Assembly: GCA_963422735.1 (NCBI GenBank)
Contig: OY730476.1
Coordinates: 320,001-384,000 of the forward strand
DNA: 64,000 nt
Direction of reading: 5' to 3'
Source of the DNA: Candidatus Latescibacterota bacterium
GTDB taxonomy: Bacteria > Latescibacterota > UBA2968 > UBA8231
Both the position numbers and the translations under genes were made by a program. This document shows positions 21,628 through 43,589 of this stretch, piece by piece. Numbering within the stretch: position 1 is the first letter of the stretch; each line of letters starts with the position of its first letter. The notes under the pieces were generated by a model. The model did not search any database and was not told the DNA's origin. It saw only the letters and a program-made list of their open reading frames with translations.

Positions 21628-21906
21628 ATGGACAGTCTTCGGGAATTCTTCACGTCGTCGAGCGGGTTGGCCCCGGCTCGGCAGGGGTTGGGACTCGGGT
21701 GGGTCATCAGCGCTCTTACGGGGGTCGCTATCCTGCTCGGGGCCAAGGAAGCCGAAGCCGGTAGTTGCCCGGGCGAACGGACAGATTGTTCTTGGCATGC
21801 CGGGTGCGCGGAAGTTTATCCGAATGAGCCGTTCCGGTGCTGCACCAAGAAGTTGGACGCCTACTGCGATGTGATTGAAGTAGTAAGTTGCTCCTGTGTG
21901 GCCTAA
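21628..21906 (+). CDS. Cys-rich secreted peptide precursor 1 (92 aa: 44-aa leader, 48-aa 8-Cys core)
   Basis: AAGGAG RBS; MDSLREFFTSSSGLAPARQGLGLGWVISALTGVAILLGAKEAEA-GSCPGERTDCSWHAGCAEVYPNEPFRCCTKKLDAYCDVIEVVSCSCVA; leader shared with 24763 and 40787. Confidence 0.9.
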   Translation: MDSLREFFTSSSGLAPARQGLGLGWVISALTGVAILLGAKEAEAGSCPGERTDCSWHAGCAEVYPNEPFRCCTKKLDAYCDVIEVVSCSCVA

Positions 21907-22062
21907 GACTACCACATCCGATATAAAGAAGATAGATGGGTGGCCGTTACTCAGGCTAAGGTGCTAAAGGTCCGGATCAATCGTAGCGTTTGAGCCGAGC
22001 TCCTCCTTTTTTCCGACTGCTTAGAGACGCTATCTGCCGGAATTGTTGGAAAGGTATGTGCT

Positions 22063-24213
22063 ATGATGTTGCTATGGGCCGTTGTTACAGGTGTTGTGCT
22101 GTGGGGTGGCTCCGCCGAGGCGGTTAGGTGGGATTTCGACGATGGGACAACGCAGGGGTGGTCTGCCAAAGAAGCGCTTATATGGGGTGGGACGCGTGAA
22201 TTGCACCTGTTTCCGGGGGGGGTCGAAGACGGCGTGTGGCGGATCAATGTCGATCCCTCGGTCACCAAGGGTCATTATCTCGCGCCGAGTGTCGAATTGA
22301 TTTCTTCGACCATCGGGTACGATTCAGGTCTATTCGACCAAGTGCGCATCCGGTTCCGCACCGTCCATCACCACCCTACGGTCGGTAATGTTTCAATCGA
22401 GTGGACCAACGAGCACAACGCCCTGTCTTCAGGTTGGGATCCAAAAGATCCGCCGTCTGGAAGCCGGTTTCAAAGCCCCGTACAACCAATCGTTTATACC
22501 ACCGAGTGGCAGGAAGTGGTGCTCTTCTTGGCAGGTCAAGACGAGAAGATATGGCAGGGGCTGTTAAAAGATATTCAGCTAGGTTTTAGACTGGATGAGA
22601 ACAAAACAGGGGCAACTCGGTCGTCTACCGAGGTGGTCGGGTGGTTTGAGATCGACTGGATCGAGTTGACCGGCGTGGAAGAGATGATACAGGGAGAACT
22701 ACCGCCGCCGCACGTAGAGTACTTTCGCTTTGCTGAGGCCAAACTTTTTGCGCCGCCGGTGTTCTATCCGATTGCGCCGGGCATAGGGGAAGACGCTCTA
22801 GGTCTAGATAAGATCGGCGTCTTGGCGGACTTGGATGGCGATGGCGACTTAGACTTTTTCGCCCCCTATAATTACCGTCAACAGGGGCGATGGTGGTCTA
22901 AAACAGGGTGGCTGATGGCCCTCAATGACGGGCAAGGCGTCTTGGAACTAGGGCGTATAGAGGAAGTATCTGCTACAGAGCAGCCTAGTACCGATGCGGC
23001 AACTGGAACGACGACCGTCTCCGGGGTGATCATAGAGGTGATTGGTGCTGATTTGACCGGCGATGGTAAAGACGAAATCGCGATATCTGCAAGCAACAGT
23101 GGGCAAGTGACAGAAGTTTGGTCTGTGGGGCCGGAACTCCAAGTCGAGGTGCTCGTGCAGATAGAGGATCGATGGATCCGAGATGTGGCGGATTGGGATG
23201 GCGACGGCCGGGTCGAACTATTTGTAGGGGATATTACGTTTGAAGGAAGCACGTTAGAGGTCTGGGATGTCGAGCAGGGGGTGTGGGCCGCCGATGAGAT
23301 TGCGACTGCCAAAAACCATGCGCCCGCTCAGATTGGCGACTTTATCGGCGATGGGGCATTAGACGTGTTGTGGCTACCGATCGCTGGGCGAGTGAATACG
23401 TGGATTGTGCAGGCCTTGAGCGAGGAGTTTCAGAGAGGCGAGATATTTGAATTCGATGAGAGGAAAGGGCTGTTAGGGATGGGCGATTTTGATGGCGATG
23501 GACAGGTGGATTTCCTCACCGAATTCGCACTTGATCGAATCGAAGGTAGGAAGGGACTGGTTTTGCAGAGGAAGCGCGCCGGAGATCGCTTAGCAGCCGA
23601 GGTGCTCTACGATGATCGGCTGTTTCTGCGCTCGTCAGTGCGGGTGCGCGACCTCAACGCCGATGGAGTCGAGGACTGGGTATTTATCGGCGGGGATCGC
23701 GCCTCGGGCTTTGGGGTGTTTGTCGAATGGGGCGGGAGCGTCAACCCTACTCAAGCAGGGGAGCGGCATCGTCTGGAGGGCAGTGGGCGATACGTGCTGT
23801 GTGGGGATATGGATAACGACGGCGATCTCGACTTGGTGGTGTTAGATCCGATATGGGGTGGAGTGCATCTGCTCAAGAGTTCACTGGCCGAGCAGCCAAC
23901 GGCGGTGCTGACGCCGGCGGTAGCGCGACCGGTGCAGCATCGGCTGGGCGACAGCTATCCCAATCCGTTCAATCCGGCGGTGGTGCTGCCCCTTGAGTTG
24001 GCAACGGACGCGGCGGGAGTGTCGCTGACGGTGTATGACGTGTTGGGTCGTCGGGTGCGGCGGGTGTGGGACGGGTCGCTGGGGTCGGGAACGCATCGGT
24101 TTACGTGGGATGGCCGCGACGCGGCGGGCAAGGCGGTGGCCGCCGGGGTGTATATCTATCAGGTCGAAATCGACGGGCAGGTGGAAGCGAAGAAGACGAC
24201 GAAGCGGCCTTGA
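22063..24213 (+). CDS. Secreted FG-GAP/VCBS-repeat protein with C-terminal FlgD-Ig/T9SS-like domain, cassette 1
   Basis: Signal peptide (AEA), WDFDDGTTQGW domain, repeated D-x-D-G-D-G motifs, YPNPFNP..WDGRD..GVYIY. Confidence 0.9.
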   Translation: MMLLWAVVTGVVLWGGSAEAVRWDFDDGTTQGWSAKEALIWGGTRELHLFPGGVEDGVWRINVDPSVTKGHYLAPSVELISSTIGYDSGLFDQVRIRFRTVHHHPTVGNVSIEWTNEHNALSSGWDPKDPPSGSRFQSPVQPIVYTTEWQEVVLFLAGQDEKIWQGLLKDIQLGFRLDENKTGATRSSTEVVGWFEIDWIELTGVEEMIQGELPPPHVEYFRFAEAKLFAPPVFYPIAPGIGEDALGLDKIGVLADLDGDGDLDFFAPYNYRQQGRWWSKTGWLMALNDGQGVLELGRIEEVSATEQPSTDAATGTTTVSGVIIEVIGADLTGDGKDEIAISASNSGQVTEVWSVGPELQVEVLVQIEDRWIRDVADWDGDGRVELFVGDITFEGSTLEVWDVEQGVWAADEIATAKNHAPAQIGDFIGDGALDVLWLPIAGRVNTWIVQALSEEFQRGEIFEFDERKGLLGMGDFDGDGQVDFLTEFALDRIEGRKGLVLQRKRAGDRLAAEVLYDDRLFLRSSVRVRDLNADGVEDWVFIGGDRASGFGVFVEWGGSVNPTQAGERHRLEGSGRYVLCGDMDNDGDLDLVVLDPIWGGVHLLKSSLAEQPTAVLTPAVARPVQHRLGDSYPNPFNPAVVLPLELATDAAGVSLTVYDVLGRRVRRVWDGSLGSGTHRFTWDGRDAAGKAVAAGVYIYQVEIDGQVEAKKTTKRP

Positions 24214-24463
24214 GGGGATGCGTCTATGCGACCGTACGCACTCGTATTGGCCTTTGCTCAAGCACCGCAGCGGCTTGGCTCTGATGCGGCCGGGGCTGAG
24301 GGGGCCGGGTTCTCAGTGCTTCGCGGGGCTTGCGGTCCTGCTCGGCGCGCGGGGAGCCGCACGCCGACCGGGAGGGCGCGATCCCTAGGAGTAGCTATAG
24401 CCTCGCTCCGATGGTATGTAGGCGGCATCGAAGGGGCTATGAAAATGGGCGGGGCCTCGGTGC

Positions 24464-24500
24464 ATACGGAAAACCGTATCCATCATACGGAAAATCGTAT
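24464..24500 (+). promoter_or_regulatory. Putative enhancer (UAS) for cassette 2: two ATACG-N6-CGTAT palindromes
   Basis: 24464-24479 and 24485-24500, 21 bp apart. Confidence 0.75.
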
Positions 24501-24621
24501 GCTCCCTAGCACCGACGGCTCCGGCACCGACAAGTAGAAAGCTTTCTCATACATTATAAGTATCATGTTTTTCAATCTGTTAGATGCGTCCTGAAGGATT
24601 TTTTGTTCGGATTCTGCTCGT

Positions 24622-24637
24622 TGGCACGCCATTTGCA
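24622..24637 (+). promoter_or_regulatory. Sigma54 -24/-12 promoter of precursor 2 and probably of the maturation operon
   Basis: TGGCACGCCATTTGCA, an exact match to TGGCACG-N4-TTGCW; IHF-like site at 24570-24582. Confidence 0.9.
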
Positions 24638-24762
24638 TAGCATAACTGTTGAAGGCGCTGCCGATGCCGACGAAAGAAGGTATCGGTCGTTGCTCAACGC
24701 TGACTTCCAGTATGGTATCGGCCTCAGGCTGCGGACGTACTGGGCAACGAAGGAGATGGACC

Positions 24763-25044
24763 ATGGACAGTCTTCGGGAATTCTTCACGTCGTCGAGCGG
24801 GTTGGCCCCGGCTCGGCAGGGGTTGGGACTCGGGTGGGTCATCAGTGCTCTTACGGGGGTCGCTATCCTGCTCGGGGCGAAAGGAGCTGCAGCCGATTGC
24901 GACAAAAGAAAGTGGACAAGGGACTTCGGGTACAGCGCAGGTTGCGACGAGGCCACGAAAGGGGCAGCGGCGAAGATGTGTCAGGACTGTTGGCTGGACT
25001 CGAAATGCAAAACAAGGTGCGGGGGGAACTACTGCTGCGCTTGA
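24763..25044 (+). CDS. Cys-rich secreted peptide precursor 2 (93 aa; 49-aa 8-Cys core)
   Basis: Same leader ending AKGAAA, core DCDKRKWTRDFGYSAGCDEATKGAAAKMCQDCWLDSKCKTRCGGNYCCA; AAGGAG RBS. Confidence 0.9.
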   Translation: MDSLREFFTSSSGLAPARQGLGLGWVISALTGVAILLGAKGAAADCDKRKWTRDFGYSAGCDEATKGAAAKMCQDCWLDSKCKTRCGGNYCCA

Positions 25045-25100
25045 AGGGTATCTGAGACGACCTTAGCTGCTGTAGGGCCGTTTCTCTTGCTAAGGTGTGA

Positions 25101-25140
25101 GGGGCCGGCTTAATCGCTGCGATTGAGCCGGCCCCCTTTT
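25101..25140 (+). terminator. Hairpin (terminator/attenuator-like) between precursor 2 and its FG-GAP gene
   Basis: GGGGCCGGCTTAATCG-CTG-CGATTGAGCCGGCCCC followed by CTTTT; homologous stems at 21966-22012 and 41111-41151. Confidence 0.7.
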
Positions 25141-25200
25141 CCCTTCGTACTTACGGACAGTGCCCAGTCTTCTGGAAATGTCTCTTATGGAGGTAGTGTC

Positions 25201-27360
25201 ATGCTGAAATTTGTCGCTGTTGCATGGGTTGTGCTGGGCAGTAGCCTCGCCGAGGCGGTTAGGTGGGATTTCGACGATGGGACGACGCAAGGGTGGACCG
25301 CCAAAGAAGCGCTTATATGGGGTGGTACGCGTGAATTTAACCAGTTTCTGGGGGGGGTCGAAGACGGCGTGTGGCGGATCCGGATTGATCCGGCCGCTAC
25401 CAAGAGTTTGCACACCTCCAGGTCGGGTGTCGAAGTGATTTCTTCGGCGATCGGGTATGATTCGGACCTGTTCGATCAAGTCCGCATCCGGTTCCGCACC
25501 GTCCATGACCGTCCTACGGAAGGTACTTTTTCTATCGCGTGGGAAAACGCTTCCGATTTTAATCTGGATGCTGAATATGAAGCGTTAACGTCTTTTATAC
25601 ATCTCGCCCAGCAAATAGTCTATACCACCGAGTGGCAGGAATTGGTGGTATCCTTGGCGGGTCAAGCCGGATGGCAGGGCCTGTTAGAAAATATTCAGCT
25701 AAGTTTCATATCTTTTGAAGTGGTCGAGTCGTTTGAGATTGACTGGATCGAGTTGACCGGCGTGGAAGAGATGATACAGGGAGAACGGCCGCCGCCGCCC
25801 GTAGAGTACTACTTTCGCTTTGCGGGGGCCGGCCTTTTTGCGCCGCCGGTGTTCTATCCGATTGCGCCGGGCATAGGGGAAGCACCTATTGGAGGAAGGT
25901 ATCTAGGGGATAAGGTATGGGGCAACGTGTTGACGGACTTGGATGGCGATGGCGACTTAGACCTGTTCGGCCTCTGGAAAACGCGAACGGAAATACCACA
26001 TGGGTATGAGGATAAAGCGGGCTGGCTGATGGCTGTCAATGACGGGCGAGGGGCCTTGGAACGTGGGCCTGTTATAGAAGAAGTAATGGCTGCAGGTTGG
26101 GTGGTCTTAAAGATGCTGAGTGCTGATTTGACCGGCGATGGTAAGGACGAAATCGCGATATCACGAAGCAACCGGGAACCCTCGACCGAAGTGTGGTCTA
26201 TCGGGCCGGAACTCCAAATCGAGGTGCTCGTGCAGTTCGATAGCGGGCTCCATAATGTGGCGGATTGGGATGGCGACGGCCGGGTTGAGTTATTTACGGG
26301 GGGGGCTATGTTTGAAGGCTCTTTAGAGGAAGTGATCGCGGGTACGGCGAAGTTTTCAAGCAGGTTAGCGGTCTGGGAGGTCGAACAGGGCGTGTGGACT
26401 TCCGAGGAAGTGGCGGCTTCCCAAGACTATACGCCCTCTCATATCGGCGACTTTACTGGCGATGGGACCCTCGATGTGTTTTGGGTGCCGATCGCCGGGG
26501 AAGCCCGTGGGATGAACAGGTGGATTGTGGGAGCCTTGGGCGAGGAGCATCAGAAAGGAGAGATATTTGAATTCGATGAACGGAAGGGGCCGTTAGGGGT
26601 GGGCGATTTTGATGGTGATGGGCAGGTGGATTTCCTCACCGAGTTCACATCCCCTCAATTCAAAGATGGCATAGAAAGAATTAGCATAGAAGGTAGTAAG
26701 GGGATCGTCTTGCAGAGAAAGGGAGCCGGGGATCGCCTCGAAGCGGAGGTGCTGTATGATGATCGGCTGTTTCGGCGCTCGCCGGTGATGGTGCGCGACC
26801 TCAACGCCGATGGAGTCGAGGACTGGGTGTTTATCGGCGGGGATCGCGCCTCGGGCTTTGGGGTGTTTGTCGAATGGGGCGGGAGCGTCAACCCTACTCA
26901 AGCAGGGGAGCGGCATCGTCTGGAGGGCAGTGGGCGATACGTGCTGTGTGGGGATATGGATAACGACGGCGATCTCGACTTGGTGGTGTTAGATCCGATA
27001 TGGGGTGGGGTGCATCTGCTTGAGAGTTCACTGGCCGAGCAGCCAACGGCGGTGCTGACGCCGGCGGTAGCGCGACCGGTGCAACATCGGCTGGGCGACA
27101 GCTATCCCAATCCGTTCAATCCGGCGGTGGTGCTGCCCCTTGAGTTGGCAACGGACGCGGCGGGAGTGTCGCTGACGGTGTATGACGTGTTGGGTCGTCG
27201 GGTGCGGCGGGTGTGGGACGGGCCGCTGGGGTCGGGAACGCATCGGTTTACGTGGGATGGCCGCGACGCGGCGGGCAAGGCGGTGGCTGCCGGGGTGTAT
27301 ATCTATCAGGTCGAAATCGACGGACAGATAGAAGCCAAGAAGACGACCAAGCTACCGTAA
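25201..27360 (+). CDS. Secreted FG-GAP/VCBS-repeat protein with FlgD-Ig/T9SS-like domain, cassette 2
   Basis: ATG 25201 after GGAGGT; paralog of 22063..24213. Confidence 0.9.
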   Translation: MLKFVAVAWVVLGSSLAEAVRWDFDDGTTQGWTAKEALIWGGTREFNQFLGGVEDGVWRIRIDPAATKSLHTSRSGVEVISSAIGYDSDLFDQVRIRFRTVHDRPTEGTFSIAWENASDFNLDAEYEALTSFIHLAQQIVYTTEWQELVVSLAGQAGWQGLLENIQLSFISFEVVESFEIDWIELTGVEEMIQGERPPPPVEYYFRFAGAGLFAPPVFYPIAPGIGEAPIGGRYLGDKVWGNVLTDLDGDGDLDLFGLWKTRTEIPHGYEDKAGWLMAVNDGRGALERGPVIEEVMAAGWVVLKMLSADLTGDGKDEIAISRSNREPSTEVWSIGPELQIEVLVQFDSGLHNVADWDGDGRVELFTGGAMFEGSLEEVIAGTAKFSSRLAVWEVEQGVWTSEEVAASQDYTPSHIGDFTGDGTLDVFWVPIAGEARGMNRWIVGALGEEHQKGEIFEFDERKGPLGVGDFDGDGQVDFLTEFTSPQFKDGIERISIEGSKGIVLQRKGAGDRLEAEVLYDDRLFRRSPVMVRDLNADGVEDWVFIGGDRASGFGVFVEWGGSVNPTQAGERHRLEGSGRYVLCGDMDNDGDLDLVVLDPIWGGVHLLESSLAEQPTAVLTPAVARPVQHRLGDSYPNPFNPAVVLPLELATDAAGVSLTVYDVLGRRVRRVWDGPLGSGTHRFTWDGRDAAGKAVAAGVYIYQVEIDGQIEAKKTTKLP

Positions 27361-27365
27361 ACGGC

Positions 27366-27956
27366 ATGGGACAGCCTAAGCATCCATTATACTGGATGTA
27401 CTCCGGTTTAATCCTGCTCTTAATCCCTGCGATTATTGTGCTTGTGGACCGCTATGAAAAGAGCCTCAGCCCCCAAGCGCCCCTACCGCCTGCTCCGCCT
27501 AAAGAAGTTGTGTTGCGCGGTCTCGCCGCGTTTGATTCCACCGCGAGTGCTCTCCACCTAAAAGAAGTGTATCAGGCCGTGCCCGCGCTGCGTTCCGGGG
27601 TGTTGTCAGCCTATCGCGTGCTTACAGACGACGAGGCATTGGCCTACAAGCTAGTCGTCGTTCGCCACGATATTGCCTGTGCTACCTGCCGCGATCTACT
27701 GGTTGGCATCCTCATAGAGCCGAAGGAAGACCGCGTTGCGGCTGTTTGGTCCTTGGCGTCTTGGGAGCTGGCCGACGGCCGCTTCGATCCGACCGCCTTC
27801 TTTGCCCAACTGAGCGGGCGGGCACTCGCTGAGCCTTTGGTTGTAGGCCGGGATATCGATGGAATCACCGGGGCGACCCTGTCCGTAAATGCCTTGGTGA
27901 CCCAATGGAGCCAAGCGGGCACTTGGCTGGCGGAGTCCACGGGAATCACCTTTTGA
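27366..27956 (+). CDS. Membrane-anchored FMN-binding domain protein with CxxC motif
   Basis: N-terminal TM (ILLLIPAIIVLV), CATC, DIDGITGATLS flavinylation-type motif; ATG 5 bp after the upstream stop. Confidence 0.7.
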   Translation: MGQPKHPLYWMYSGLILLLIPAIIVLVDRYEKSLSPQAPLPPAPPKEVVLRGLAAFDSTASALHLKEVYQAVPALRSGVLSAYRVLTDDEALAYKLVVVRHDIACATCRDLLVGILIEPKEDRVAAVWSLASWELADGRFDPTAFFAQLSGRALAEPLVVGRDIDGITGATLSVNALVTQWSQAGTWLAESTGITF

Positions 27957-27969: not shown

Positions 27970-29127
27970 ATGGATATGTTGCTGAATGAGATTGATCTCG
28001 TCTTCTTGCTAGAGTGGGGCCTGCTGTGCTCGATCATGGCTGTTGCCGCCTACACAACTTATACGGACGTCAGCCATAGAGAGATTCCCAATTCGGCTAT
28101 TGGGACTTTGCTCGGTCTGGGGCTGATAGGGCAGATGGGATTGTGGATATTGGGTGAGGTTGCACTCGTATCGATCGGGCTATCATTGCTGCTGGGATTT
28201 GCCGTAGGCTACCTGTTGTTTATGTATGGCTTCTGGGGGGCGGGGGATGCCAAGTTGTATTGGGCCATGGTCGCGGCGATGCCTAGTACGTTGTTTGGTC
28301 AGAAGTGGCCGACTCTCTCCTTGGCCTTTTTTTCGCTAGATACCCCTATTTGGTCCTTGTTGGTCAATACCATTTTGACCAATACCGTTTTTCTTGTAGT
28401 CCTTCTGGTCCTCCATAAACCCGCAAGACCCATCGCAATCTCTGCAAGCGAGCATAGAAAGGGCATGAATTGGGGCTGGCTGCGCTCGGGGTTTGAAGCG
28501 GCAGGATTGAGCGGGTTGGTGTTAGGTGGGACGACGTTGGTCGGCGTGACCTTGACCCTCGCCGAGGCTATCGTAGTGGGGGCTGTGCTCTATTTGATCC
28601 ATGAAGAGCGGACCAAGGCGCCCAATAGAATTATTTGGGTCGTTCCCGGGCTTGTAATCGGTGTCTTTAGCACCATCAGCACCGGGAACTACCTGATCTG
28701 TCTCTTGCTTTGGGCCGTGCTGTGGGGCATACAGACCGTCTATGTGTATATCCACGCTCTCGAGTACCAGAAGTTTGTGCAGCCGGTTTCTATCGATGCC
28801 TTACAGCCGGGCATGGTGCTACATCAGTCGATTTATGAAGCCCCTGCGGAAGGGCGAGTCGAAGTAGTTTCGTTCGGCGAGCAGAGTAGAGATACGCGGG
28901 AGCGAATAGGTCGAATGGGCAAGCCGTTGACCGGGCGAAAAGTGCGCCAGCTAAAAGACCTACAAAAAAAGGGATTGTTCCGCGAATGGGACGATCAGGT
29001 AGAAGTTGAACTGTCGCTGCCCTTTGCGCCGGTCTTGATGGTTGGCGTCGGCCTAACTCTGATATGGCCCGGAAGTATGGTAAGGCCAGTCAATCGGTGG
29101 ATTCAGCCGTTGTTCGATGCGTTTTAG
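27970..29127 (+). CDS. A24-family prepilin/preflagellin peptidase (GxGD aspartyl protease), FlaK/PibD-like
   Basis: YTDVSHREIPN (Asp1), WGAGDAKL (GxGD), multiple TMs, C-terminal LQPGMVL..LPFAPVLMVG; no PilD N-terminal Cys/methylase domain. Confidence 0.85.
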   Translation: MDMLLNEIDLVFLLEWGLLCSIMAVAAYTTYTDVSHREIPNSAIGTLLGLGLIGQMGLWILGEVALVSIGLSLLLGFAVGYLLFMYGFWGAGDAKLYWAMVAAMPSTLFGQKWPTLSLAFFSLDTPIWSLLVNTILTNTVFLVVLLVLHKPARPIAISASEHRKGMNWGWLRSGFEAAGLSGLVLGGTTLVGVTLTLAEAIVVGAVLYLIHEERTKAPNRIIWVVPGLVIGVFSTISTGNYLICLLLWAVLWGIQTVYVYIHALEYQKFVQPVSIDALQPGMVLHQSIYEAPAEGRVEVVSFGEQSRDTRERIGRMGKPLTGRKVRQLKDLQKKGLFREWDDQVEVELSLPFAPVLMVGVGLTLIWPGSMVRPVNRWIQPLFDAF

Positions 29128-29145: not shown

Positions 29146-29700
29146 ATGAAAGCTATGCGCTCGAAACCGCAAGCGACGATGCTGTTGCTGTCAACGGTGC
29201 TGGGCATCCTCTTGGGGACCAGTATATTGTTGGCCACAAAAATCAACAATCCTCCAATCGCCCCAATGGCGACGAGCTTGGAAAACCTGTTGGGTGAACG
29301 CGTCCCGGAGTACAAACTCGAACAACTGAACGGTGCTCCAATCTCGACCCATCTGTACAAGGGCGAATCCCACCTGCTGGCCTTTACGCTGCCGAGTTGT
29401 GATGCCTGTGACACCATGTACCCCATTTTAAGGGAAGCGGCTACAGATATTCCCATTTTGATGATTGCCAATACACGAGAAGGACTGATGGAAAAGGTCG
29501 CCGAACACGCCTTGGCCTTTCCCATTGCTGTAGATACACTGCTGCTGACGATGGAAGAGCTCAACATCACGAATTTCCCGACCGCGCTCTTGGTGGATGG
29601 GGAACAAAGGATCGTCGAGGCCGTCAGGGGCGGCGGCTTCCCGATTGAGAACATTGTACAGTCCGCGCAGAAAGTACTTGAAAAAGAGAGGACACAATGA
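29146..29700 (+). CDS. Membrane-anchored TlpA/MauD-like thioredoxin-fold protein
   Basis: N-terminal TM, PSCDAC, cis-Pro loop NFPTALLVD. Confidence 0.8.
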   Translation: MKAMRSKPQATMLLLSTVLGILLGTSILLATKINNPPIAPMATSLENLLGERVPEYKLEQLNGAPISTHLYKGESHLLAFTLPSCDACDTMYPILREAATDIPILMIANTREGLMEKVAEHALAFPIAVDTLLLTMEELNITNFPTALLVDGEQRIVEAVRGGGFPIENIVQSAQKVLEKERTQ

Positions 29701-33943: not shown

Positions 33944-34195
33944 GGGAGCTGACGTTACGCAGTGCTTTGTCGCGGACGAACCAGTCCATCAGGTGGTCCC
34001 CCGCCGGTGGCCCCCGCTGGATGTCACGCCTAAAGGCGCGGTGAAGCCTGCTTCCGCAGGAAGGATCCTCGCCCGGACCGAGGTTCGAGCCCAAGGCTCG
34101 TCATTCCCTCGAAAGTGGGGAGGCAGCGGGGGGAGGCAGGGCGAAACCACGCCTTGGGCGGTAAACTGCGTAACGCCAGTAAGGGAGCGAGCTCA

Positions 34196-35239
34196 ATGGA
34201 TATTTCTGTCGTCATCGCTACACACAATCAGCGCGATCGGTTGCGGCTTGTGTTAAGCGGCTTGGCCGTTCAAACATTCTCCGAGGGTCCGTTTGAGGTT
34301 ATAGTGGTGGACGATGGCAGCACGGACGGAACGGGGGAGTTTCTGCGTACATATAAGCAACTTCCCATAAAAGCTATTCCCTTGCATACCAATGTAGGAC
34401 GCGGTCGAGCGCGAAATATCGGTATAGCGGAAGCGCGGGGAGACGTAGTCGCCTTTTTAGATGGAGACGCGCTACCGGATCCCGATTGGTTGGCTCAACA
34501 TTGGCGACTATTTCAGCGCTACAACGGTGTAACAAGCGGGTTCCAGTATTGCTTGCCTTGCTTGGAGTACGTTGAGGATCCGCAAAGTGGTCTTCCTTGG
34601 GAGGACGTTCCGGCCTCGGTTACTCAGAGCATGCGTACGTATCCAGACGAATTTCGGGTGACCGAAGCCATGGTACAGTCCGATTTCGGCGCGATTGATC
34701 GACTGGCTCAAGAGGGTGGGTATCCCTTCCCGGAGTTAAAATTAATGCAAGATCAAGTACAACTGCTCTTTGACAACGTGCCCGATTCGCCGATTGGTTG
34801 GATCAGTTTTTATCCACACAATGCTTCGGCCCCGCGCGTCGCCCTTGAGGAGGTCGGTGGATTTGACGAAGAGCTGCTCCATTCTGAAGGATGGGATTTA
34901 GCCTATCGCCTCATGCGGAATGGCTACAACATGCGCTTTGCAACCAAGGCGCAGAGCTATCACCTGTATCACCACCACGACTTTTTTAGTCCACAGAATG
35001 CGTTCGCAGAATCGCAAAAACGGCGTAGGGCGATAGCCCATATAGTGAAGAAAAACGAGGATTCTCGGCTGTATCTAATCGAATTTTGGCTCGCTTCTCT
35101 ATGGCCGGACTGCCTAATTCCAGAGGAGATGCGCCTCAACAACCTGATGGAATTTCACGAAACGCATCAGACTATCTCGTGCGGTGAAATGGCAGAGCGT
35201 ACATTAATGCTCGATCTTCATCCCTTGAGAGGGGCATAA
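34196..35239 (+). CDS. Family 2 glycosyltransferase
   Basis: ISVVIATHN, VVDDGSTDGT, ARNIG, FLDGD, VGGFDEE..EGWDLAYRL, HLYH; ATG 34196. Confidence 0.9.
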   Translation: MDISVVIATHNQRDRLRLVLSGLAVQTFSEGPFEVIVVDDGSTDGTGEFLRTYKQLPIKAIPLHTNVGRGRARNIGIAEARGDVVAFLDGDALPDPDWLAQHWRLFQRYNGVTSGFQYCLPCLEYVEDPQSGLPWEDVPASVTQSMRTYPDEFRVTEAMVQSDFGAIDRLAQEGGYPFPELKLMQDQVQLLFDNVPDSPIGWISFYPHNASAPRVALEEVGGFDEELLHSEGWDLAYRLMRNGYNMRFATKAQSYHLYHHHDFFSPQNAFAESQKRRRAIAHIVKKNEDSRLYLIEFWLASLWPDCLIPEEMRLNNLMEFHETHQTISCGEMAERTLMLDLHPLRGA

Positions 35240-35242
35240 GGC

Positions 35243-36583
35243 ATGAGACGGCCATGGAAGGTTCCGCTGCAAAAAGATAGAAGACTGCAAAGTTGCTTGG
35301 CGCTGTCGCTGGCCTTGCATCTGCTGGCGATGTTTGGCGTCGCGCACCGCGAGCGGGTTACTCAATTCCCTGTCCTCCCGCCGATCATGGTGAAGTTTAC
35401 CAAACGGCCACCGCCGCAGCGCACCCTCACCCGTCGCCAACGGCCCCACCAACGGCCCTTGGTGCGCCGCCCGGCCCTGCAAGCGGCCCCGGTCGAGGCC
35501 GTGCGGCCGGCTCCCTCGGCGGTGCGCCCGCTGCCGGTGTTCCAGACCTCGGCTCCCCGGCTGTCGACGGCTTCGCTGCCGGATCGGGTGGTGTTGCCCG
35601 TGCCGGATTTTCCGGCTCGGCACATTGGCCCGCACCTGCGGGTTGGGGCGTTGGAAGGGACGCGGCAGGGCGCGGACGAGATTGACTTGGGCTTGGAGAT
35701 GATGGATGTGCAGGCGCTGGACACGGGGCGGCACCGGGCGATGGTCGTGGTCGATCCCAAAGATCGGCGCAACCTCAAGGGGTTCCTCTATATGTCCGGC
35801 CTCTACAGCCCTTCCATCGAACGGGCTGAATACAGTGAGCAGGCCGAAAATATACAAGTGCGCTGGTATCACCAGATGCCGCGCCAAATGGTGGAACGGC
35901 GGATGCTGCAAGGGTTAGCCGATAAGATGACTGCCAGTACGCAGGTCCACGTCGAAGTGCGCGACGCGATTCGACTCGACGATCCGCAGCTTTTGCAAGT
36001 CCCCTTCGTGCTGCTAACTGTCAATACCCCCTTTGAGTTTACGGACAGCGAGGCGGCCAATCTAGGGGCGTATTTGACCGGCGGCGGCTTCCTGTTTGTG
36101 GATATTGTCCGCATGTTGTGGAACAATTATAGAGACGACGAATTAGACATTCCCTCGGTGCGTTCCCTCATTCGCGCCGGCTTCCAAGCAGTGGGCTATC
36201 AAGAATGGAAGGATTGGCAGTTTAGCCGCCTAGAGCTAACCCATCCGCTCTATCATTGCTTCTACGATGTAAACAGCCTGCCGCGCGGGATGCGCGATAT
36301 GCACTTTATGGTTGATGACTATCCGCCACGCACGCCGGACTATTTGGAGGGGATCATGGTCGGGGAGCAGTTGGTGGGGGTGTATTCGATGCGGAACTAC
36401 GCGGATTTCTGGGCGGGCATCGGTCGGGAGTTGGTGGATTGGTCTTTGGCGAATAACGTAGTCAACCACTCGGCTCTGGTCAGTGCCGAAGAGCCGTTGG
36501 TCTATGATTTGGGGGTGAATATCGTGGTGTACGCGTTGACGCGGGAGGGATCATTGGCGCGGCAATTAGTCGATGCAGACTGA
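35243..36583 (+). CDS. DUF4159-domain protein with TonB-like N-terminal anchor and Pro-rich linker (copy 1)
   Basis: SLALHLL anchor, Pro/Arg linker, EAANLGAYLTGGGFLFVD, HPLYHCFYD, LGVNIVVYALT. Confidence 0.75.
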   Translation: MRRPWKVPLQKDRRLQSCLALSLALHLLAMFGVAHRERVTQFPVLPPIMVKFTKRPPPQRTLTRRQRPHQRPLVRRPALQAAPVEAVRPAPSAVRPLPVFQTSAPRLSTASLPDRVVLPVPDFPARHIGPHLRVGALEGTRQGADEIDLGLEMMDVQALDTGRHRAMVVVDPKDRRNLKGFLYMSGLYSPSIERAEYSEQAENIQVRWYHQMPRQMVERRMLQGLADKMTASTQVHVEVRDAIRLDDPQLLQVPFVLLTVNTPFEFTDSEAANLGAYLTGGGFLFVDIVRMLWNNYRDDELDIPSVRSLIRAGFQAVGYQEWKDWQFSRLELTHPLYHCFYDVNSLPRGMRDMHFMVDDYPPRTPDYLEGIMVGEQLVGVYSMRNYADFWAGIGRELVDWSLANNVVNHSALVSAEEPLVYDLGVNIVVYALTREGSLARQLVDAD

Positions 36584-36750
36584 GATTGGAGGACATATCA
36601 CCCTCGGGAAACGCTTGATTTTGGGGTCTTTCGACGCCCCGTGAGGCCGGCGCGGATTTTAAGACAGCTTCTAACGTTGAAGGGGGTACTCATCGCACCT
36701 TATTCCGGTTTCACCACAAATTTCAAGTTAATGTACAGAAGGGTGCTGTC

Positions 36751-37241
36751 ATGTTGCCCATTTCCATTTGTGTATGGATGGTGCTGTTGAGTGGCCCTGC
36801 GGCGGCGATCAGGTGGGGTTTTGACGATGGGACGATGCAGGGATGGGGAGCCAAGAAACCTATTAGTGCCGGGGGGATCATCCGTTGTCTGGGGCGGTCG
36901 AAGCGGCGTGTGGCGGATCAATGCCTTTCGCACCGGCGGCCTCAGTGGATCCGGGATCGAATTGATTTCTCCTACGATAGGCTATGATTCGCACCTTTTC
37001 GACCGGGTGCGGGTGCGGTTCCGCACGGTCCATCACAGTCCTACAACAGGAGACGTACTCCTCCGCTGGACCAATGAGCACAACCTCATGTACCCGGGTA
37101 GTGACCCCCTACCGGGAAGGGGTCGGTTTTCTCTTCCCGCAAACGGCACCTACGGCGAGTTGGTATATACGACCGAATGGCAAGAGTTCGAGTTTTCGTT
37201 GGTTGACATGGAGGAGAATTTCTTCTGTGTGATAAGACCCA
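36751..37241 (+). pseudogene. Frameshifted N-terminal remnant of another FG-GAP paralog
   Basis: Signal peptide + IRWGFDDGTMQGW, then in another frame LISPTIGYDSHLFDRVRVRFRTVHH..VYTTEWQE; ends where the regulator block starts. Confidence 0.85.
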
Positions 37242-37291
37242 AGCTGCTGCGGGGAGGGGCCTAAAATCTTCCAAGCACCGAAAGGACGAGT

Positions 37292-40200
37292 ATGAGCGCC
37301 ATATCCTTTGAGCATATGTTGAGCCGCCAGTACACGGTCTTCGATGGGCTGGGTGGGATGCACGTGGAAGACATCTACCAAGACCGCCAAGGCTTTCTCT
37401 GGATCGCCACGGCCGACGGTGGCGTCAGCCGGTTCGACAGTGTGCGCTTCGATACCTTTAACACCAAAGATGGCCTGCCCAATCTGACGGTGATGGCCAT
37501 TGCCGAGGAAGCCGACGGGCGGCTGCTGTTGGGCACGTTTGGCGGGGGGATCGCCGCCTACGACGGGCGCGGCTTTCAGGTGTACACCACCGAGCACGGC
37601 CTGCCTTCCAATGAGATCGTGAGCCTGCAACCGCAGCCGGATGGCTCGATGCTGGTGCTGACCAACGAGGGGGTAGCGTGGTTTGCCGAGGGGGGCTGTA
37701 CAAGGAGCATAACCGATGTTGGCGGCCAACCGTTGGGGCGGGTGTACGATATGGCCACTGACGCGGGCGGCACCACTTGGCTGGCCACGTGGGAGCGAGG
37801 TGTTCTCAGCTTGGATGGGCGGTGCATGGATACCGGCGACCGGGCGGTGCGATGGCCTTGGAAATTCGCCGAAGGTCCCTCTGGCCACCTGTGGATTGCC
37901 TTCCTGTACATGAACCCCGAAACCTTTATCGGCCGCTACGATGCGCGAGACGAGCAGTTCGCATTCATCCATGTGGATTGCGAAGCCGAGAGGGCTGCGC
38001 AGAATGGGGTGCGGCATGTGCGGGTTGACGATAGGGGCTGGCTCTGGCTGGCGCGCCGAGGGGTGGTGGTACACACAGGTCAAGAGTGGCAGCAGGTTTC
38101 CGCCTCCCTGCCCGATATTGACTTTTCGGGTACGCGCCTGACGTACGAGGACCGCGAGGGCAATATATGGATCGGGCTTTGGGGCGGCGGGCTAATTTTT
38201 TGCGATCCGGCCAGCGTCCGGCTCTACACCGAAGCCAACGGCCTGCCGGACCGCGAGGTTCGCCACTTAGGCGAAGATTCTAAGGGGCGGATGTGGATCG
38301 GCACGATGGGGGGCATGGCCTGCATGGAAGAGGGGCAAATCCGTCCGCTCGATCAGTTTGAAACCGTTTCGGCGATGATGGTGGATAGCGCGGGGCAGGT
38401 CTGGAGCGGCGGGGACACCGGCCGGGTGTACAAGTGGGAAGGCCAGACGCCGCGAGCGATCGCCGTGGATGAAGAAATCCACTCCGAAAAAATCACCGGG
38501 CTGTGCCAAGACGGGCAAGGGCGTATATGGATTGGCACGTTCCGCGGCCACTTCGGCTGGGTAGAAGCCCATCGCTTCACCCTCCTCGACGAGTGGGAAG
38601 GCGATGAATGCCGCGCCCTGCTGCGAAACCAAAACGGGGTATTCTGGATTGGTTTCTTCGGCAGAGTCCCGGCACTTTACTGGTACGAGGACGGTCATTT
38701 TCGCCCGGTGAAGATGGACGAGTTGGAGACGATCGTCTATGTCAATGTCTTGTGGGAGCACCAAAATGTCTTGTGGATCGGCACGGCTAAGGGGCTTTTC
38801 GCGCTCGACCACTCGTCGGGGCAGGTGCGCCACTTTACGACCGATCAGTTTGAGCGGTCGGCCAATGGCGTCTTGGCACTGGCGGCCGACCGCCAGGGCC
38901 ATATTTGGATTGGGACCAGTGGTGGGGGTGTGCTGCGCTACGACGGCGAGACCTTCCAAAGCATCCGCTTAGGGCCGTCTGCTCTCGTAAACATAGTCGA
39001 GGCTATTCTATGCGACCGCGATGGCCGGCTGTGGTTTGGGACGCGGGCCGGCTTGGTCGCCTACCAGCCCGGCGACACGCCGCCGCGCTTGGTGATCCGC
39101 GAGGTGATGGCCGGCACCCTCTTAGATGCGCCTGAAGCCGTCTCCTGCTCAGAGAGCATTCCCGAAATCCGCATCCACTTCCAAGGCATCAGCTTCCGCA
39201 CCGGCGTACAGCAGATGCGCTATCGCCACCGCTTGGTAGGCTACGGCCCGGCCGAACCGTGGAGCGCGTTCACCGCCGTCGATGCGGTGGTGTACACCGC
39301 CTTGCCGGTGGGCGACTACCGCTTTGAGGTGCAGACCATAGACCAAGATGGCCTGAAGTCCGAGGTGATCGGCTTGGACGTCCACATCCTCCCCGGCATC
39401 CAAACTGAACGCTTCCGCGCTTTCGGAAAGGCCCTGCGGGCGATCGAGTCTGTTGTGCCGAGCCGCAGTCGGGCCATGCAACAGGTGATGAAAAAAGTCT
39501 CGCAGGTCGCCGGGACCGATATGACCGTGCTGGTGCTGGGCGAGACCGGCACGGGCAAGGGGGTGCTCGCGCAGACCCTCCACGACACAAGCCGCCGCCA
39601 CGGGCATCCCTTTATCCAAGTCAATTGCGGGGCACTGCCCCCCGGGTTGGTCGAGAGCGAGTTGTTCGGCCACGAGAAAGGGGCCTTTACCGGCGCAAAC
39701 ACCCGCCAGATCGGGCGCTTTGAACTGGCCGATGGCGGCACACTCTTTCTGGACGAAATCGGCGATTTGCCGTTGGAATCTCAGCGGGTGCTGCTGCATA
39801 TCTTAGAGGAGAATACCCTGACCCGCGTCGGTGGCGAGCAGTCTGTGCGGGTGGATGTGCGGGTGATTGCGGCGACCAACCTCGACCTACAGCAGGCTAT
39901 CGAGGAGGGCACGTTCCGCAAAGACCTGTTTTATCGTCTGGAGGTCTTCGCGCTTGAGCTTCCGTCGCTGCGGCAGCGGTGCGAGGATATACCGGCTTTA
40001 GCCGCGCATTTTGTGGAGTGGTATGCCCAAGACCTCAAGCGGCCGGTGCCGACGATAGACGACGGGGTGGTCGCGCATTTGCAGGCGTACTCTTGGCCGG
40101 GGAATGTGCGCGAACTGGAGCACGTGATCCACCGGGCGGTCTTGCTGTGCGAGGGTGGTGTGATAGGGGTGGAGGAGGTGGCGTTGCCGGCTGAAGACGA

Positions 40201-40438
40201 GGAGGGGGACGAAAGCCAGTCGCCCCCGCCGGCTGAACGACAAACCGGGGATGCGGCCGAAGAGACGCCGCTTGTCGAAGGCATGGACGAAAAGCAGCAG
40301 ATTGTGGAGGCCCTGCAAGCGACCAATTGGATGATCTACGGCGAGCGCGGCGCGGCCAAACTGTTGGATATGAACCCGGAGAAACTGCGTTCCCGCATGC
40401 GCGTGTACGGGTTGCGGCGACCGAAAAAGTCGTCTTAA
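37292..40438 (+). CDS. Sigma54 enhancer-binding protein with N-terminal two-component-regulator beta-propeller and Y_Y_Y domains
   Basis: Many D..G.LWI(G/A)T..G repeats, YRHRLVG..VYTALPVGDYRFEVQ, GETGTGKG, GAFTGA, FLDEIGD, WPGNVRELEH, C-terminal HTH. Confidence 0.9.
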   Translation: MSAISFEHMLSRQYTVFDGLGGMHVEDIYQDRQGFLWIATADGGVSRFDSVRFDTFNTKDGLPNLTVMAIAEEADGRLLLGTFGGGIAAYDGRGFQVYTTEHGLPSNEIVSLQPQPDGSMLVLTNEGVAWFAEGGCTRSITDVGGQPLGRVYDMATDAGGTTWLATWERGVLSLDGRCMDTGDRAVRWPWKFAEGPSGHLWIAFLYMNPETFIGRYDARDEQFAFIHVDCEAERAAQNGVRHVRVDDRGWLWLARRGVVVHTGQEWQQVSASLPDIDFSGTRLTYEDREGNIWIGLWGGGLIFCDPASVRLYTEANGLPDREVRHLGEDSKGRMWIGTMGGMACMEEGQIRPLDQFETVSAMMVDSAGQVWSGGDTGRVYKWEGQTPRAIAVDEEIHSEKITGLCQDGQGRIWIGTFRGHFGWVEAHRFTLLDEWEGDECRALLRNQNGVFWIGFFGRVPALYWYEDGHFRPVKMDELETIVYVNVLWEHQNVLWIGTAKGLFALDHSSGQVRHFTTDQFERSANGVLALAADRQGHIWIGTSGGGVLRYDGETFQSIRLGPSALVNIVEAILCDRDGRLWFGTRAGLVAYQPGDTPPRLVIREVMAGTLLDAPEAVSCSESIPEIRIHFQGISFRTGVQQMRYRHRLVGYGPAEPWSAFTAVDAVVYTALPVGDYRFEVQTIDQDGLKSEVIGLDVHILPGIQTERFRAFGKALRAIESVVPSRSRAMQQVMKKVSQVAGTDMTVLVLGETGTGKGVLAQTLHDTSRRHGHPFIQVNCGALPPGLVESELFGHEKGAFTGANTRQIGRFELADGGTLFLDEIGDLPLESQRVLLHILEENTLTRVGGEQSVRVDVRVIAATNLDLQQAIEEGTFRKDLFYRLEVFALELPSLRQRCEDIPALAAHFVEWYAQDLKRPVPTIDDGVVAHLQAYSWPGNVRELEHVIHRAVLLCEGGVIGVEEVALPAEDEEGDESQSPPPAERQTGDAAEETPLVEGMDEKQQIVEALQATNWMIYGERGAAKLLDMNPEKLRSRMRVYGLRRPKKSS

Positions 40439-40474
40439 AGAGGATTGCGGCTAACCGAAGAGGCTGCGCTCTTG

Positions 40475-40511
40475 ATACGGAAAGTCGTATAAATCATACG
40501 GAAAGTCGTAT
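40475..40511 (+). promoter_or_regulatory. Putative enhancer (UAS) for cassette 3
   Basis: ATACGGAAAGTCGTAT at 40475-40490 and 40496-40511, 21 bp apart. Confidence 0.75.
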
Positions 40512-40620
40512 GCGGCCTTGCGCCGGTGCCTCATAGGAAGAGCCGTCTCATAATTCTAAGTATCATTTTCTTCAACGCTTTAGGGTCTCCTAAAGCATTT
40601 TTTTGCTCTTCCCTCGTTTT

Positions 40621-40636
40621 GGGCACGGAATGTGCA
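40621..40636 (+). promoter_or_regulatory. Sigma54 -24/-12 promoter of precursor 3
   Basis: GGGCACGGAATGTGCA (GG-N10-GC); IHF-like CTTCAACGCTTTA at 40570-40582, at nearly the same distance as in cassettes 1 and 2. Confidence 0.75.
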
Positions 40637-40786
40637 TATACAAAAGCAAGGCCTAGGCGGAAGTGCCGAAGCAGAAAGAAGGTGAGCGAACCACATCCTG
40701 GGCTTTACTTCACATCTCATTCCCTCGTCCCGTAGCCTCGCAGCACTTGGTCGCGGGCCTACGGGCGTATTGAGGAGGTAGAAGTT

Positions 40787-41059
40787 ATGAACACGTTGCG
40801 GGAGTTTTTCACGTCGTCGAGCGGGTTGGTGCCGGCTCGGCAGGGGCTGTCGCTGGGGTGGGTCATCAGTGCCCTCGTAGGGGTCGCCATTCTGGTCGGG
40901 GCAGAGGAAGCTGAAGCCCAAGATTGTCCGTCTACTTCGTTTGATTGCGAATACATGTATCCCACACACTGCACGAAATATTTTCCGACCCGGTGCTGCG
41001 TGATTAAGCTGGACCATAATTGCAGGAGCACTCTAGAATATTGTTTCTGCACCCCCTAA
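40787..41059 (+). CDS. Cys-rich secreted peptide precursor 3 (90 aa; 46-aa 8-Cys core)
   Basis: GAGGAGGT RBS; MNTLREFFTSSSGLVPARQGLSLGWVISALVGVAILVGAEEAEA-QDCPSTSFDCEYMYPTHCTKYFPTRCCVIKLDHNCRSTLEYCFCTP. Confidence 0.9.
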   Translation: MNTLREFFTSSSGLVPARQGLSLGWVISALVGVAILVGAEEAEAQDCPSTSFDCEYMYPTHCTKYFPTRCCVIKLDHNCRSTLEYCFCTP

Positions 41060-43586: not shown

Positions 43587-43589
43587 GGC

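Follow-up and report, generated by a model that had tools for sequence, protein, structure and literature searches.

Peptide families that join a conserved pre-region to a hypervariable mature region are known from eukaryotes, with conotoxins, defensins and the SCR/SP11 peptides of the plant S-locus as examples. These superfamilies are multigene, use several cysteine (Cys) frameworks and show near-neutral or faster evolution at their non-Cys positions. The mussel MgCRP-I family is described in those terms (PMC4558851). Here we report on a bacterial locus with a similar layout, found in a stretch of 64,000 nucleotides (nt) of a Candidatus Latescibacterota bacterium (GenBank assembly GCA_963422735.1, contig OY730476.1, positions 320,001 to 384,000), hereafter called the window. 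It carries three genes for short precursors, in each of which a leader of 44 amino acids (aa) is followed by a Cys-rich core. We consider it highly probable that the precursors belong to a genuine family of exported, disulfide-bonded mini-proteins with a dedicated leader. A full-text literature search, with most subscription journals outside its coverage, returned no description of a bacterial system of this kind.

Precursors, cores and the family

The three precursor genes are on the + strand and each is preceded closely by AGGAG, a Shine-Dalgarno-like sequence. Precursor 1 (21628-21906, 92 aa) has its leader at 21628-21759, ending in AEA, and its core at 21760-21903 (48 aa); precursor 2 (24763-25044, 93 aa) has a leader at 24763-24894, ending in AAA, and a core at 24895-25041 (49 aa); precursor 3 (40787-41059, 90 aa) has a leader at 40787-40918, again ending in AEA, and a core at 40919-41056 (46 aa). 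According to the translations, all Cys are located 3' of the leader. Each core has eight, on the framework C-C-C-CC-C-CxC in core 1 (C-6-C-5-C-10-CC-7-C-7-CxC) and core 3 (C-6-C-7-C-7-CC-7-C-6-CxC), and on C-C-CxxC-C-C-CC in core 2 (C-14-C-11-CxxC-5-C-3-C-4-CC). Leaders 1 and 2 are identical at 126 of 132 nt, and their identity stops ~5 codons before the AxA site because the mismatches are at codon 28 and codons 39-43; leaders 1 and 3 share 106 of 132 nt (26 differences). Core 1 aligns with core 3 at a score of 59 and with core 2 at 13. A preceding inspection of the letters (the sequence-only reading) had reported these three open reading frames (ORFs) with their AxA leaders, the eight Cys with exact spacings, the near-identity of leaders 1 and 2 ending a few codons before AxA and the closer kinship of core 1 to core 3, and translation and alignment reproduced all of it. 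Its suggestion that core 3 starts with Gln holds if the cut follows AEA, and Gln comes first in 5 of the cores from the best 120 of the 159 family proteins introduced below. Core 1 is covered by contigs of 4 independent runs (4 studies) with no listed difference across 21712-21909, and orthologues of precursor 1 have 74-84% identity (P0002-P0009).

Searching with the leader retrieved 159 database proteins at E<=1 (word-indexed search); another 72, several of which have far more divergent leaders, emerged at E<=1e-3 when 1.84 billion representatives were searched with a profile. Database proteins and the ORFs of related loci (33 loci compared) were deduplicated into 199 unique single-module cores of 25-75 aa. 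Eight Cys were present in 129 of these, six in 30, ten in 18, twelve in 2, four in 4 and two in 1; the number was even in 184/199 and odd in 15, several of the latter being truncated records. Among the best 120 of the 159 proteins, the frameworks were C-C-C-CC-C-CxC (50), C-C-CxxC-C-C-CC (25), C-C-C-C-C-CxC-C (14), C-C-C-C-CC (6), C-C-C-C-C-C (5) and C-C-CxCxxC-C-C-CCxC (5), the rest being singletons. The sequence-only reading had described the cores as always having eight Cys, two frameworks and a shared LDxxC. This is correct for the three window genes (LDAYC, LDSKC, LDHNC). Across the family, eight is only the modal Cys number, at least six frameworks exist, and LDxxC, present in 50/199 cores, is ruled out as a family motif; what homologs do keep is the evenness of the count. 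Judged from sequence, the family rule is an even Cys number on one of several scaffolds, and in cores of 35-60 aa the scaffold (6, 8, 10 or 12 Cys) is the sole constant. The mean core charge is -2.6, with 79% of the 199 cores net negative and only 5.5% at +2 or above; core 2 itself is at +2.

The leader has an n-region with Arg5 and Arg18, a hydrophobic stretch (GLGLGW...LLGA) and AEA or AAA at its end, a layout that agrees with the sequence criteria for Sec and signal peptidase I. Residue -1 is Ala in 174/199 precursors and residue -3 is Ala, Thr, Val, Gly or Ser in 175/199. On the cytoplasmic side, the motif EF..S.SG......GL..GW is conserved ahead of the hydrophobic segment and the AxA site. 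Database comparisons gave the family no relatives of known type: Pfam had no match for 7 precursors at E<=10, NCBIfam had none for the three window precursors, and profile searches of the PDB returned no chain better than E 0.4. In the ESM Atlas, the closest clusters were unnamed hypothetical proteins at 0.85-0.87 (<0.9), most commonly labelled Candidatus Poribacteria, which we take as a lead only. A core-only profile-profile comparison (hhalign; A5 with 24 rows against A6 with 16 rows) gave P 6.5e-4 over 38 columns at a probability of just 27%; it pairs the first Cys, the ..AGC motif, the CC of cores 1/3 with the CxxC of core 2, and LD with LD. The two frameworks look like diverged forms of one domain in this alignment, whose statistics are weak for Cys-rich sequences, and the LDxxC of the three window cores suggests a relic of common descent, not a functional signature.

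The manner in which Cys change within the family bears on how they may be bonded. Among 88 cores that fit the core-1/3 profile, double losses took {C1,C6} twice, {C2,C4} once and {C5,C7} twice, with a few further {C5,C7} losses blurred by alignment shifts. C4 is traded for a new C-terminal Cys in 15 cores of this framework, and in 10-Cys forms the two Cys were always gained together. This suggests a predicted pairing of C1-C6, C2-C4, C5-C7 and C3-C8, the last because the other three pairs leave it by elimination. Considering the even counts, the paired changes, the export-type leader and the two oxidoreductase genes in the locus, disulfides are the best reading of the Cys. The term four-disulfide mini-proteins, used in the sequence-only reading, would then be apt in that the proteins are small, exported and Cys-rich, and too narrow in its number, eight Cys not being universal.

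To evaluate selection, we calculated Nei-Gojobori ratios of nonsynonymous to synonymous substitution (dN/dS) between genes from different loci (1164 of 1205 leader pairs usable). The leader had a dN/dS of 0.20 (dS 0.78). For the cores, dN/dS was 1.02 in the framework of cores 1/3 (9 alignable pairs; 0.15 for the leader of the same pairs) and 0.57 in the CxxC framework (15 pairs; leader 0.20). The leader is conserved as protein, because its dN/dS is 0.15-0.20 while dS is 0.6-0.8. Leaders are under purifying selection and cores evolve near-neutrally except at the fixed Cys, so that the difference between leader (~0.2) and core (0.57-1.02) anticipated by the sequence-only reading is indeed found across relatives.

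Each precursor forms a unit with a partner gene lying 3' of it (see below). Between units 1 and 2, DNA identity is 90-100% from 21102 to ~21750 (promoter region and leader), 30-47% in the core, a mosaic of 28-95% in the partner gene and 97-100% in the final ~550 nt of the latter. Short-read assemblies from other samples fork precisely at 21760, the first core codon. Leader similarity was 0.839 for unrelated cores of the same genome (n=86) and 0.816 for the same core type in different genomes (n=40), and every window core has clear orthologues in other genomes. The sequence-only reading had envisaged cores swapped or diversified behind a constant leader. A constant leader and diversified cores are what we see, and in place of swapping, the data are better described as stable, vertically inherited core lineages, kept as core-partner cassettes, with flanks homogenised within a genome by gene conversion. 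Hypermutation by a diversity-generating retroelement was considered and rejected: core 1 does not vary in the 4 runs, the scanned window ORFs include no reverse transcriptase, and cores have stable orthologues elsewhere.

Incomplete units are also present. At 19328-21041 (+), the activator gene's first ~850 nt recur at 99% identity (19328-20175), fused to the final ~790 nt of a partner gene (20251-21041), and at 36751-37264 an N-terminal partner-gene fragment abuts the intact activator gene. Both remnants look as if repeated units had recombined.

With regard to distribution, the family was detected in 25 of 168 genomes of the phylum (one per species), at 1 to 19 copies per positive genome, and 21 of these 25 belong to the genus of the window (31 genomes). 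Labelled relatives were Latescibacterota metagenome-assembled genomes (MAGs) and one Gemmatimonadetes MAG. The family is almost only found in one genus-level group of Latescibacterota.

Partner genes, regulation and the conserved locus

Across relatives, the genes are ordered as activator, one or more pairs of peptide and partner, flavin mononucleotide (FMN)-binding-like protein, A24 peptidase, thioredoxins 1 and 2, TPR protein, glycosyltransferase family 1 (GT1)-like/transglutaminase protein, family 2 glycosyltransferase (GT2) and DUF4159 protein. Of the 50 single-module peptide genes counted over the window and the 33 related loci, 48 have an FG-GAP partner gene within 1.2 kb on their 3' side. 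The typical partner of ~715 aa starts with a Sec signal and an unassigned domain of ~200 aa, continues with FG-GAP repeats and also has a type A sorting domain of the type IX secretion system (T9SS). Partner 1 (22063-24213, +; 716 aa) has the Sec signal, an N-terminal domain without assignment, FG-GAP_3 (1.4e-13), FlgD_ig (7.8e-12) and TIGR04183 (31.5 bits, cut-off 23); partner 2 (25198-27360, +; ORF open from 25123, likely ATG at 25198) and partner 3 (41202-43343, +) likewise have FG-GAP and T9SS sorting domains. When 41 partners in a tree were labelled by the framework of the upstream peptide, 8 label changes sufficed (mean of shuffles 17.8, 0/200 as low), and the partners of the CxxC framework fell into one clade (12/12, support 100). 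Given that the peptide and partner genes are adjacent, this match shows that the pair is a unit of inheritance, not that the proteins interact. A complex prediction for core 1 with residues 21-625 of partner 1 (score 0.08, mark 0.32) gave no evidence either way.

In some relatives, peptide and sorting domain are fused. All eight (L012, L024, L026, L027, L029, L037, P0122 and P0138) pass TIGR04183 with 24.1-35.4 bits and consist of the family leader, 1-3 Cys-rich modules and, directly thereafter, the sorting domain. Multi-module fused proteins are encoded at L012:8716-9489, L024:8823-9644, L026:8836-9828 and 9890-10741, L027:5731-6543, L029:9126-10118 and 10181-11029, and L037:6001-6837, and their 2-3 tandem modules are spaced by short acidic SEAEQ-like linkers. 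Modules can thus be strung together and leave as a single cargo. Because these fused relatives pass TIGR04183 and the host genome has T9SS genes, the Cys modules of at least some members are T9SS cargo. The host genome, a single contig that is 95% complete, encodes SprA_N (84 bits, in a 2140-aa ORF), PorU (632 bits, cut-off 420) and ~50 ORFs with sorting domains.

The peptide genes have promoter-like elements of the sigma-54 type. Elements of the -24/-12 type lie on the + strand at 21492-21507 for precursor 1 (-24/-12-like, 1 mismatch to the consensus), 24622-24637 for precursor 2 (0 mismatches) and 40621-40636 for precursor 3 (2 mismatches, GG/GC intact). Such an element (<=2 mismatches, GG/GC intact) was found 136-178 nt 5' in 35 of 59 peptide genes, compared with 1.5% of shuffled upstream regions; the genes without it are mostly second genes of arrays. 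Over the whole window the motif is not enriched (27 vs 31 expected at <=2 mismatches), and only the position-specific test is informative. Further 5', by 130-230 nt relative to -24/-12, palindrome arrays accompany 10 of 59 peptide genes, including all three in the window. Precursor 1 has three palindromes of 16 nt (type ATACGG-N4-YCGTAT; 21303-21370, +) that lie 325, 304 and 273 nt 5' of it and form a candidate activator site; two are at 24464-24500 (+), 299 and 278 nt 5' of 24763, and two at 40475-40511 (+), 5' of precursor 3. The activator itself is a sigma-54 enhancer-binding protein (37292-40438, +; Sigma54_activat 1.7e-69) with an N-terminal Reg_prop (8.1e-44)/Y_Y_Y propeller sensor, and its gene is directly 5' of the first peptide gene in many related loci. 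Sigma-54 control through this adjacent activator is, in our judgement, likely.

Between precursor 2 and its partner, a stem-loop with a 16-bp stem followed by a T-rich run (25101-25135, +) resembles a terminator or attenuator. The intergenic fold is unusually stable after precursor 2 (z -4.18, 0/200 shuffles equally stable) and in the related hairpin of precursor 3 (z -4.31), and unconvincing after precursor 1 (z +1.21). A hairpin in this position may limit read-through, leaving more peptide than partner mRNA. The GC-rich hairpins at 25101-25135 and 41110-41150 and a weaker one at 21970-22010 have a loop-region sequence in common (..CTTAATCG.. / ..CGAT.GAGC..).

Downstream of partner 2, the window carries the remainder of the conserved gene set, all on the + strand. 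First is a membrane-anchored FMN-binding-like protein (27369-27956) with a TGAT flavinylation-type motif; PF04205 scores 15-20 bits (cut-off 22) and is the top or sole match in 6/6 orthologues and paralogues, all below the cut-off. The [S/T]GA[S/T] flavinylation motif and the concept of a hybrid flavin/thioredoxin module are set out in PMC8238504. The next gene encodes an A24 GxGD aspartyl peptidase of the prepilin/preflagellin type (27970-29127; 385 aa; Peptidase_A24 7.4e-07; PF01478 30 bits, cut-off 26.5; weak FlaK_Arch), in which the catalytic positions D33 and G92-D93 are invariant in 9/9 orthologues and paralogues; a PDB sequence search with this protein gave no match at E<=1. It is followed by two TlpA/ResA-like thioredoxin-fold proteins, the first (29146-29700) with CDAC, an N-terminal anchor or signal and sub-threshold matches to AhpC-TSA/Redoxin and to ResA/MauD, the second (29697-30227) with CPYC, AhpC-TSA (5.5e-18), Redoxin (3.9e-11) and weak ResA, MauD and StoA matches. 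A TPR protein (30249-31454), which is kept in the locus of relatives, an 826-aa protein that combines a GT1-like region with a domain of the transglutaminase-core, cysteine-protease-like type (31463-33943; Transglut_core 5.5e-11, MGT weak), a GT2 (34115-35239; 5.6e-29) and a DUF4159 protein (35243-36583) complete the set. A second DUF4159 copy is at 43590-44933; the first 300 nt and upstream of the copies (35153-35452 vs 43500-43799) are 99% identical and their 3' ends 80%, which fits local gene conversion.

No type IV filament ATPase (PF00437, T2SSE/PilB/TadA) was matched in the host genome, and it is missing in 23 of the 31 genus genomes; 13 of the 17 A24-positive genomes of the genus have no T2SSE match. 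Flp_Fap (PF04964) has no match in the host genome at E<=1 and none in the 168 phylum genomes at E<=0.001. Counting within the genus, 17 genomes have both peptide and A24, 4 peptide only, 0 A24 only and 10 neither, kin being non-independent. The host genome has no further full-length copy of this A24 peptidase; DsbB and VKOR were not found in it, and ApbE is present. Many of the same genomes carry a second whole system, 30-60% identical, with an equal gene set, an A24 paralogue of its own and a separate, divergent class of leader in which EF..S.SG......GL..GW is retained. That of the host (G000:C1:1708594-1716400, at ~1.71 Mb; L004 covers part) has only a C-terminal A24 fragment. Its other genes encode an FMN-like protein, a pair of thioredoxins, a peptide with 6 Cys behind a divergent leader, an FG-GAP/T9SS protein of 715 aa and DUF4159; its glycosyltransferase (GT) gene is broken, and an activator gene lies upstream on the opposite strand.

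Proposed mechanism, alternatives and further window features

The best explanation of these data, which we hold with moderate confidence, is a lineage-specific system dedicated to the maturation and T9SS-linked export of disulfide-rich mini-proteins that are paired with cognate propellers. The adjacent activator with its propeller sensor would turn on the -24/-12 promoters of the peptide genes, and the leader would carry the core over the inner membrane. The A24 GxGD peptidase of the locus would process the leader, a step for which we see the chances as evenly balanced, and cleavage at AxA is probably the work of signal peptidase I. Disulfides would be formed and shuffled by the FMN-binding-like membrane protein and the two TlpA-like thioredoxins, DsbB and VKOR being absent from the genome; that this module folds the cores strikes us as an even call. 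The folded module would then exit by the T9SS, stand-alone peptides with, or bound to, the FG-GAP beta-propeller encoded just 3', and for these peptides we propose this exit tentatively, at slightly under even chances. The heritable unit would be the core plus the variable part of the propeller, with promoter, leader and partner 3' end kept alike by gene conversion. Within this scheme, we infer the cleaving peptidase and its site, the Cys oxidant, the co-export of the stand-alone peptide with the downstream propeller and the biological role.

Several observations weigh against this explanation. The description as a mini-protein with four disulfides stands on sequence statistics only, the core dN/dS values come from only 9 and 15 pairs, and the match between partner clade and framework may reflect co-inheritance of adjacent genes instead of interaction. 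NCBIfam reveals no T9SS sorting domain in any of the three stand-alone precursors. The leader is unlike the Flp_Fap model and has no acidic +5 residue (Arg or Trp at +5 after either invariant Gly). Among the genomes of the genus that have the peptides, four are without an A24 orthologue (G120, G134 in one contig, G137 in three contigs, and G141); conversely, 2 of the 4 A24-like copies of G102 (L047, L048) have no leader-type ORF or locus gene in 10-12 kb, and A24-like genes of 30-33% identity occur in genera without a peptide match at E<=1e-5 (g18, 5/10; G103, G104). The FMN_bind and thioredoxin-1 matches are below curated cut-offs, and TlpA-like thioredoxins are usually reductants rather than oxidants.

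The alternative that survives best is plain Sec secretion, in which the leader is only a signal for signal peptidase I, conserved to an unusual degree, the peptides are periplasmic or leak out, and the A24, GT and FMN/thioredoxin proteins serve other clients, e.g., the FG-GAP proteins. It would account for the classical n-h-c leader with small residues at -3 and -1, for fused forms as ordinary T9SS cargo that needs Sec, and for the genomes with peptides and no A24 orthologue as well as the missing Flp_Fap match. We nevertheless regard it as unlikely, since the n-region is conserved residue by residue, unlike ordinary signal peptides (dN/dS ~0.2 at dS 0.6-0.8), the leader motif persists even where the rest of the leader has diverged strongly, A24 paralogue and leader class have changed jointly in two parallel systems, and a type IV filament ATPase that would provide A24 with another client is missing from the genome.

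Under the favoured explanation of dedicated maturation and export, the role of the peptides is likely to be specific extracellular binding, in recognition or adhesion pairs, and not membrane-active killing; taken as a claim by itself, a role as specific binding or recognition pairs is doubtful, and we raise it as a possibility. A bolder version would have the core and the variable face of the T9SS-displayed propeller co-diversify as ligand and receptor in self/non-self or host recognition, a bacterial counterpart of the SCR/SRK pair of the plant S-locus. A maturation pathway new to science would serve it, with the orphan A24 clipping the leader in cells that have no type IV filament and the flavin-thioredoxin module replacing DsbA/DsbB. 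In this ligand-receptor reading, which we think improbable, the cytoplasmic leader fragment freed by A24 may feed back on the propeller-sensor activator.

Another possibility is that the precursors are pilin-like and anchored, with A24 cutting after the invariant Gly13 or Gly20 and the hydrophobic segment staying on as a membrane anchor or filament with a Cys-rich head. An A24 peptidase with intact catalytic residues in the locus and two invariant Gly, with an Arg before them, just ahead of the hydrophobic stretch would be consistent with this. The Ser-Gly and Gly-Leu spacing also appears to resemble that of Flp-type prepilins; the 168 phylum genomes contain no Flp gene for a profile comparison. 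Against it stand the lack of a T2SSE/PilB/TadA-type ATPase in the genome and of Flp_Fap across the phylum, the T9SS sorting domain on the fused forms, and the AxA conserved just before a hypervariable core, which would be pointless if uncut. All told, we rate a pilin-like or anchored product as very unlikely.

We give equally little credence to bacteriocins of the glycocin type or another class of peptides made by ribosomes and modified after translation (RiPPs), whose cores would be modified, e.g., by GT2/GT1-like glycosylation, and locked by disulfides into antimicrobials, the propeller serving as immunity, carrier or receptor protein. Conserved synteny of leader/core precursors with two GTs, a transglutaminase-type domain and two thioredoxin-fold proteins would fit, as would the hairpin 3' of the precursor genes, which many precursor operons have, and sublancin-type clusters contain a similar gene set. 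The locus, however, has neither an ABC transporter/C39 peptidase nor a double-glycine leader, the cores are acidic, and no Ser, Thr or Cys acceptor is conserved beyond the Cys scaffold; moreover, with a leader that resembles an export signal, the core would exit the cytoplasm unfolded. The idea that the Cys clusters bind metal in the manner of metallothioneins or zinc ribbons, at least in the core 2 CxxC framework, is scarcely credible, the CxxC and CC motifs of core 2 being outweighed by the export-type leader, the even Cys counts, the paired Cys changes, the thiol-disulfide oxidoreductases encoded alongside, the want of any conserved His and the missing CxxC in other, seemingly homologous frameworks.

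Elsewhere in the window, an MbnP-like protein is encoded beside a di-haem cytochrome c peroxidase/MauG-like protein (7167-8963, -; an MbnH/MbnP-type pair), and this pair adjoins a histidine kinase and a second sigma-54 response regulator (9137-12066, +). A secreted protein (45245-46900) that contains an F5/8 type C (discoidin) domain and has a C-terminus of the FlgD_ig/sorting type adjoins the system in L013 too. At 57804-61444 lies a NurA-HerA (HAS-barrel/DUF87) gene pair, which is unusual outside archaea and a few bacterial phyla.

Comparison with known systems

For peptide engineering, the family is a source of roughly 200 natural scaffolds, rich in disulfides and 35-60 residues long; it also supplies orphan A24 peptidases with a testable client and is a candidate system of molecular recognition in an uncultured phylum. 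The RiPP families of prochlorosins, Nif11 and NHLP also have a conserved leader, probably recognised by dedicated enzymes, hypervariable cores, several precursors per genome and maturation genes in the locus. Unlike them, this locus lacks genes of the lanthionine, radical SAM, cyclodehydratase and C39-transporter kinds, and its leader is of the membrane/signal type with AxA in front of 35-60-aa disulfide cores; with Pfam and NCBIfam, no RiPP class enzyme or recognition element was detectable, and the locus has GTs, a transglutaminase-core protein and A24. Glycocin clusters of the sublancin type likewise combine a small disulfide peptide, a GT2 and two thiol-disulfide oxidoreductase genes. They differ in having a SunT-type exporter and another leader type, and the present locus adds A24, a T9SS-linked partner and sigma-54 control.

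Class III signal peptides (type IV and Flp pilins, archaellins) are similar in the adjacent A24, the conserved N-terminal motif and the invariant Gly before the hydrophobic segment. In contrast to these, the peptides described here come without a filament ATPase, a Flp_Fap match or an acidic +5, and they have a signal-peptidase-I-type site after the hydrophobic segment followed by a hypervariable, Cys-rich C-terminal part. As for type A cargo of the T9SS, the partners and fused relatives pass TIGR04183 and the genome encodes SprA and PorU, whereas the stand-alone peptides of the window are without a sorting domain; for a small protein to be exported along with a partner that carries one is, to our knowledge, not an established T9SS route. 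Extracytosolic flavinylated/thioredoxin electron-transfer modules (PMC8238504) and MauD-type helpers of disulfide-rich proteins are comparable in that the present locus places a membrane-anchored FMN-binding-like protein with an [S/T]GA[S/T] motif beside exported thioredoxin folds of weak ResA, MauD and StoA likeness, in a genome that has ApbE. Compared with those modules, the matches here are weak or sub-threshold and the locus has no DsbD or ApbE gene; the part of PMC8238504 that the analysis covered describes no tie of a flavin/thioredoxin module to a Cys-rich peptide family.

The sequence-only reading had likened the organisation to that of eukaryotic toxins or defensins. The likeness holds for the conserved pre-region, the hypervariable mature region, the Cys scaffold and the multigene family. 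It does not extend to sequence, with no match to a defensin, knottin or conotoxin family in Pfam or among the PDB profiles (best E 0.4), or to charge, the cores being mostly acidic where defensin-type peptides are cationic. The predicted pairing C1-C6, C2-C4, C3-C8, C5-C7 also differs from the plant-defensin pattern. In comparison with the eukaryotic superfamilies, then, this family is bacterial, has acidic rather than cationic cores and no sequence similarity to them, and is encoded with A24, FMN/thioredoxin and T9SS machinery that has no eukaryotic counterpart. If our explanation is correct, it newly ties such peptides to a non-pilus A24 peptidase, to flavin/thioredoxin folding without DsbB or VKOR and to T9SS export of small partners, and it would mean that bacteria independently reached the strategy of a constant pre-region with a hypervariable disulfide scaffold that venoms, defensins and plant recognition peptides employ.

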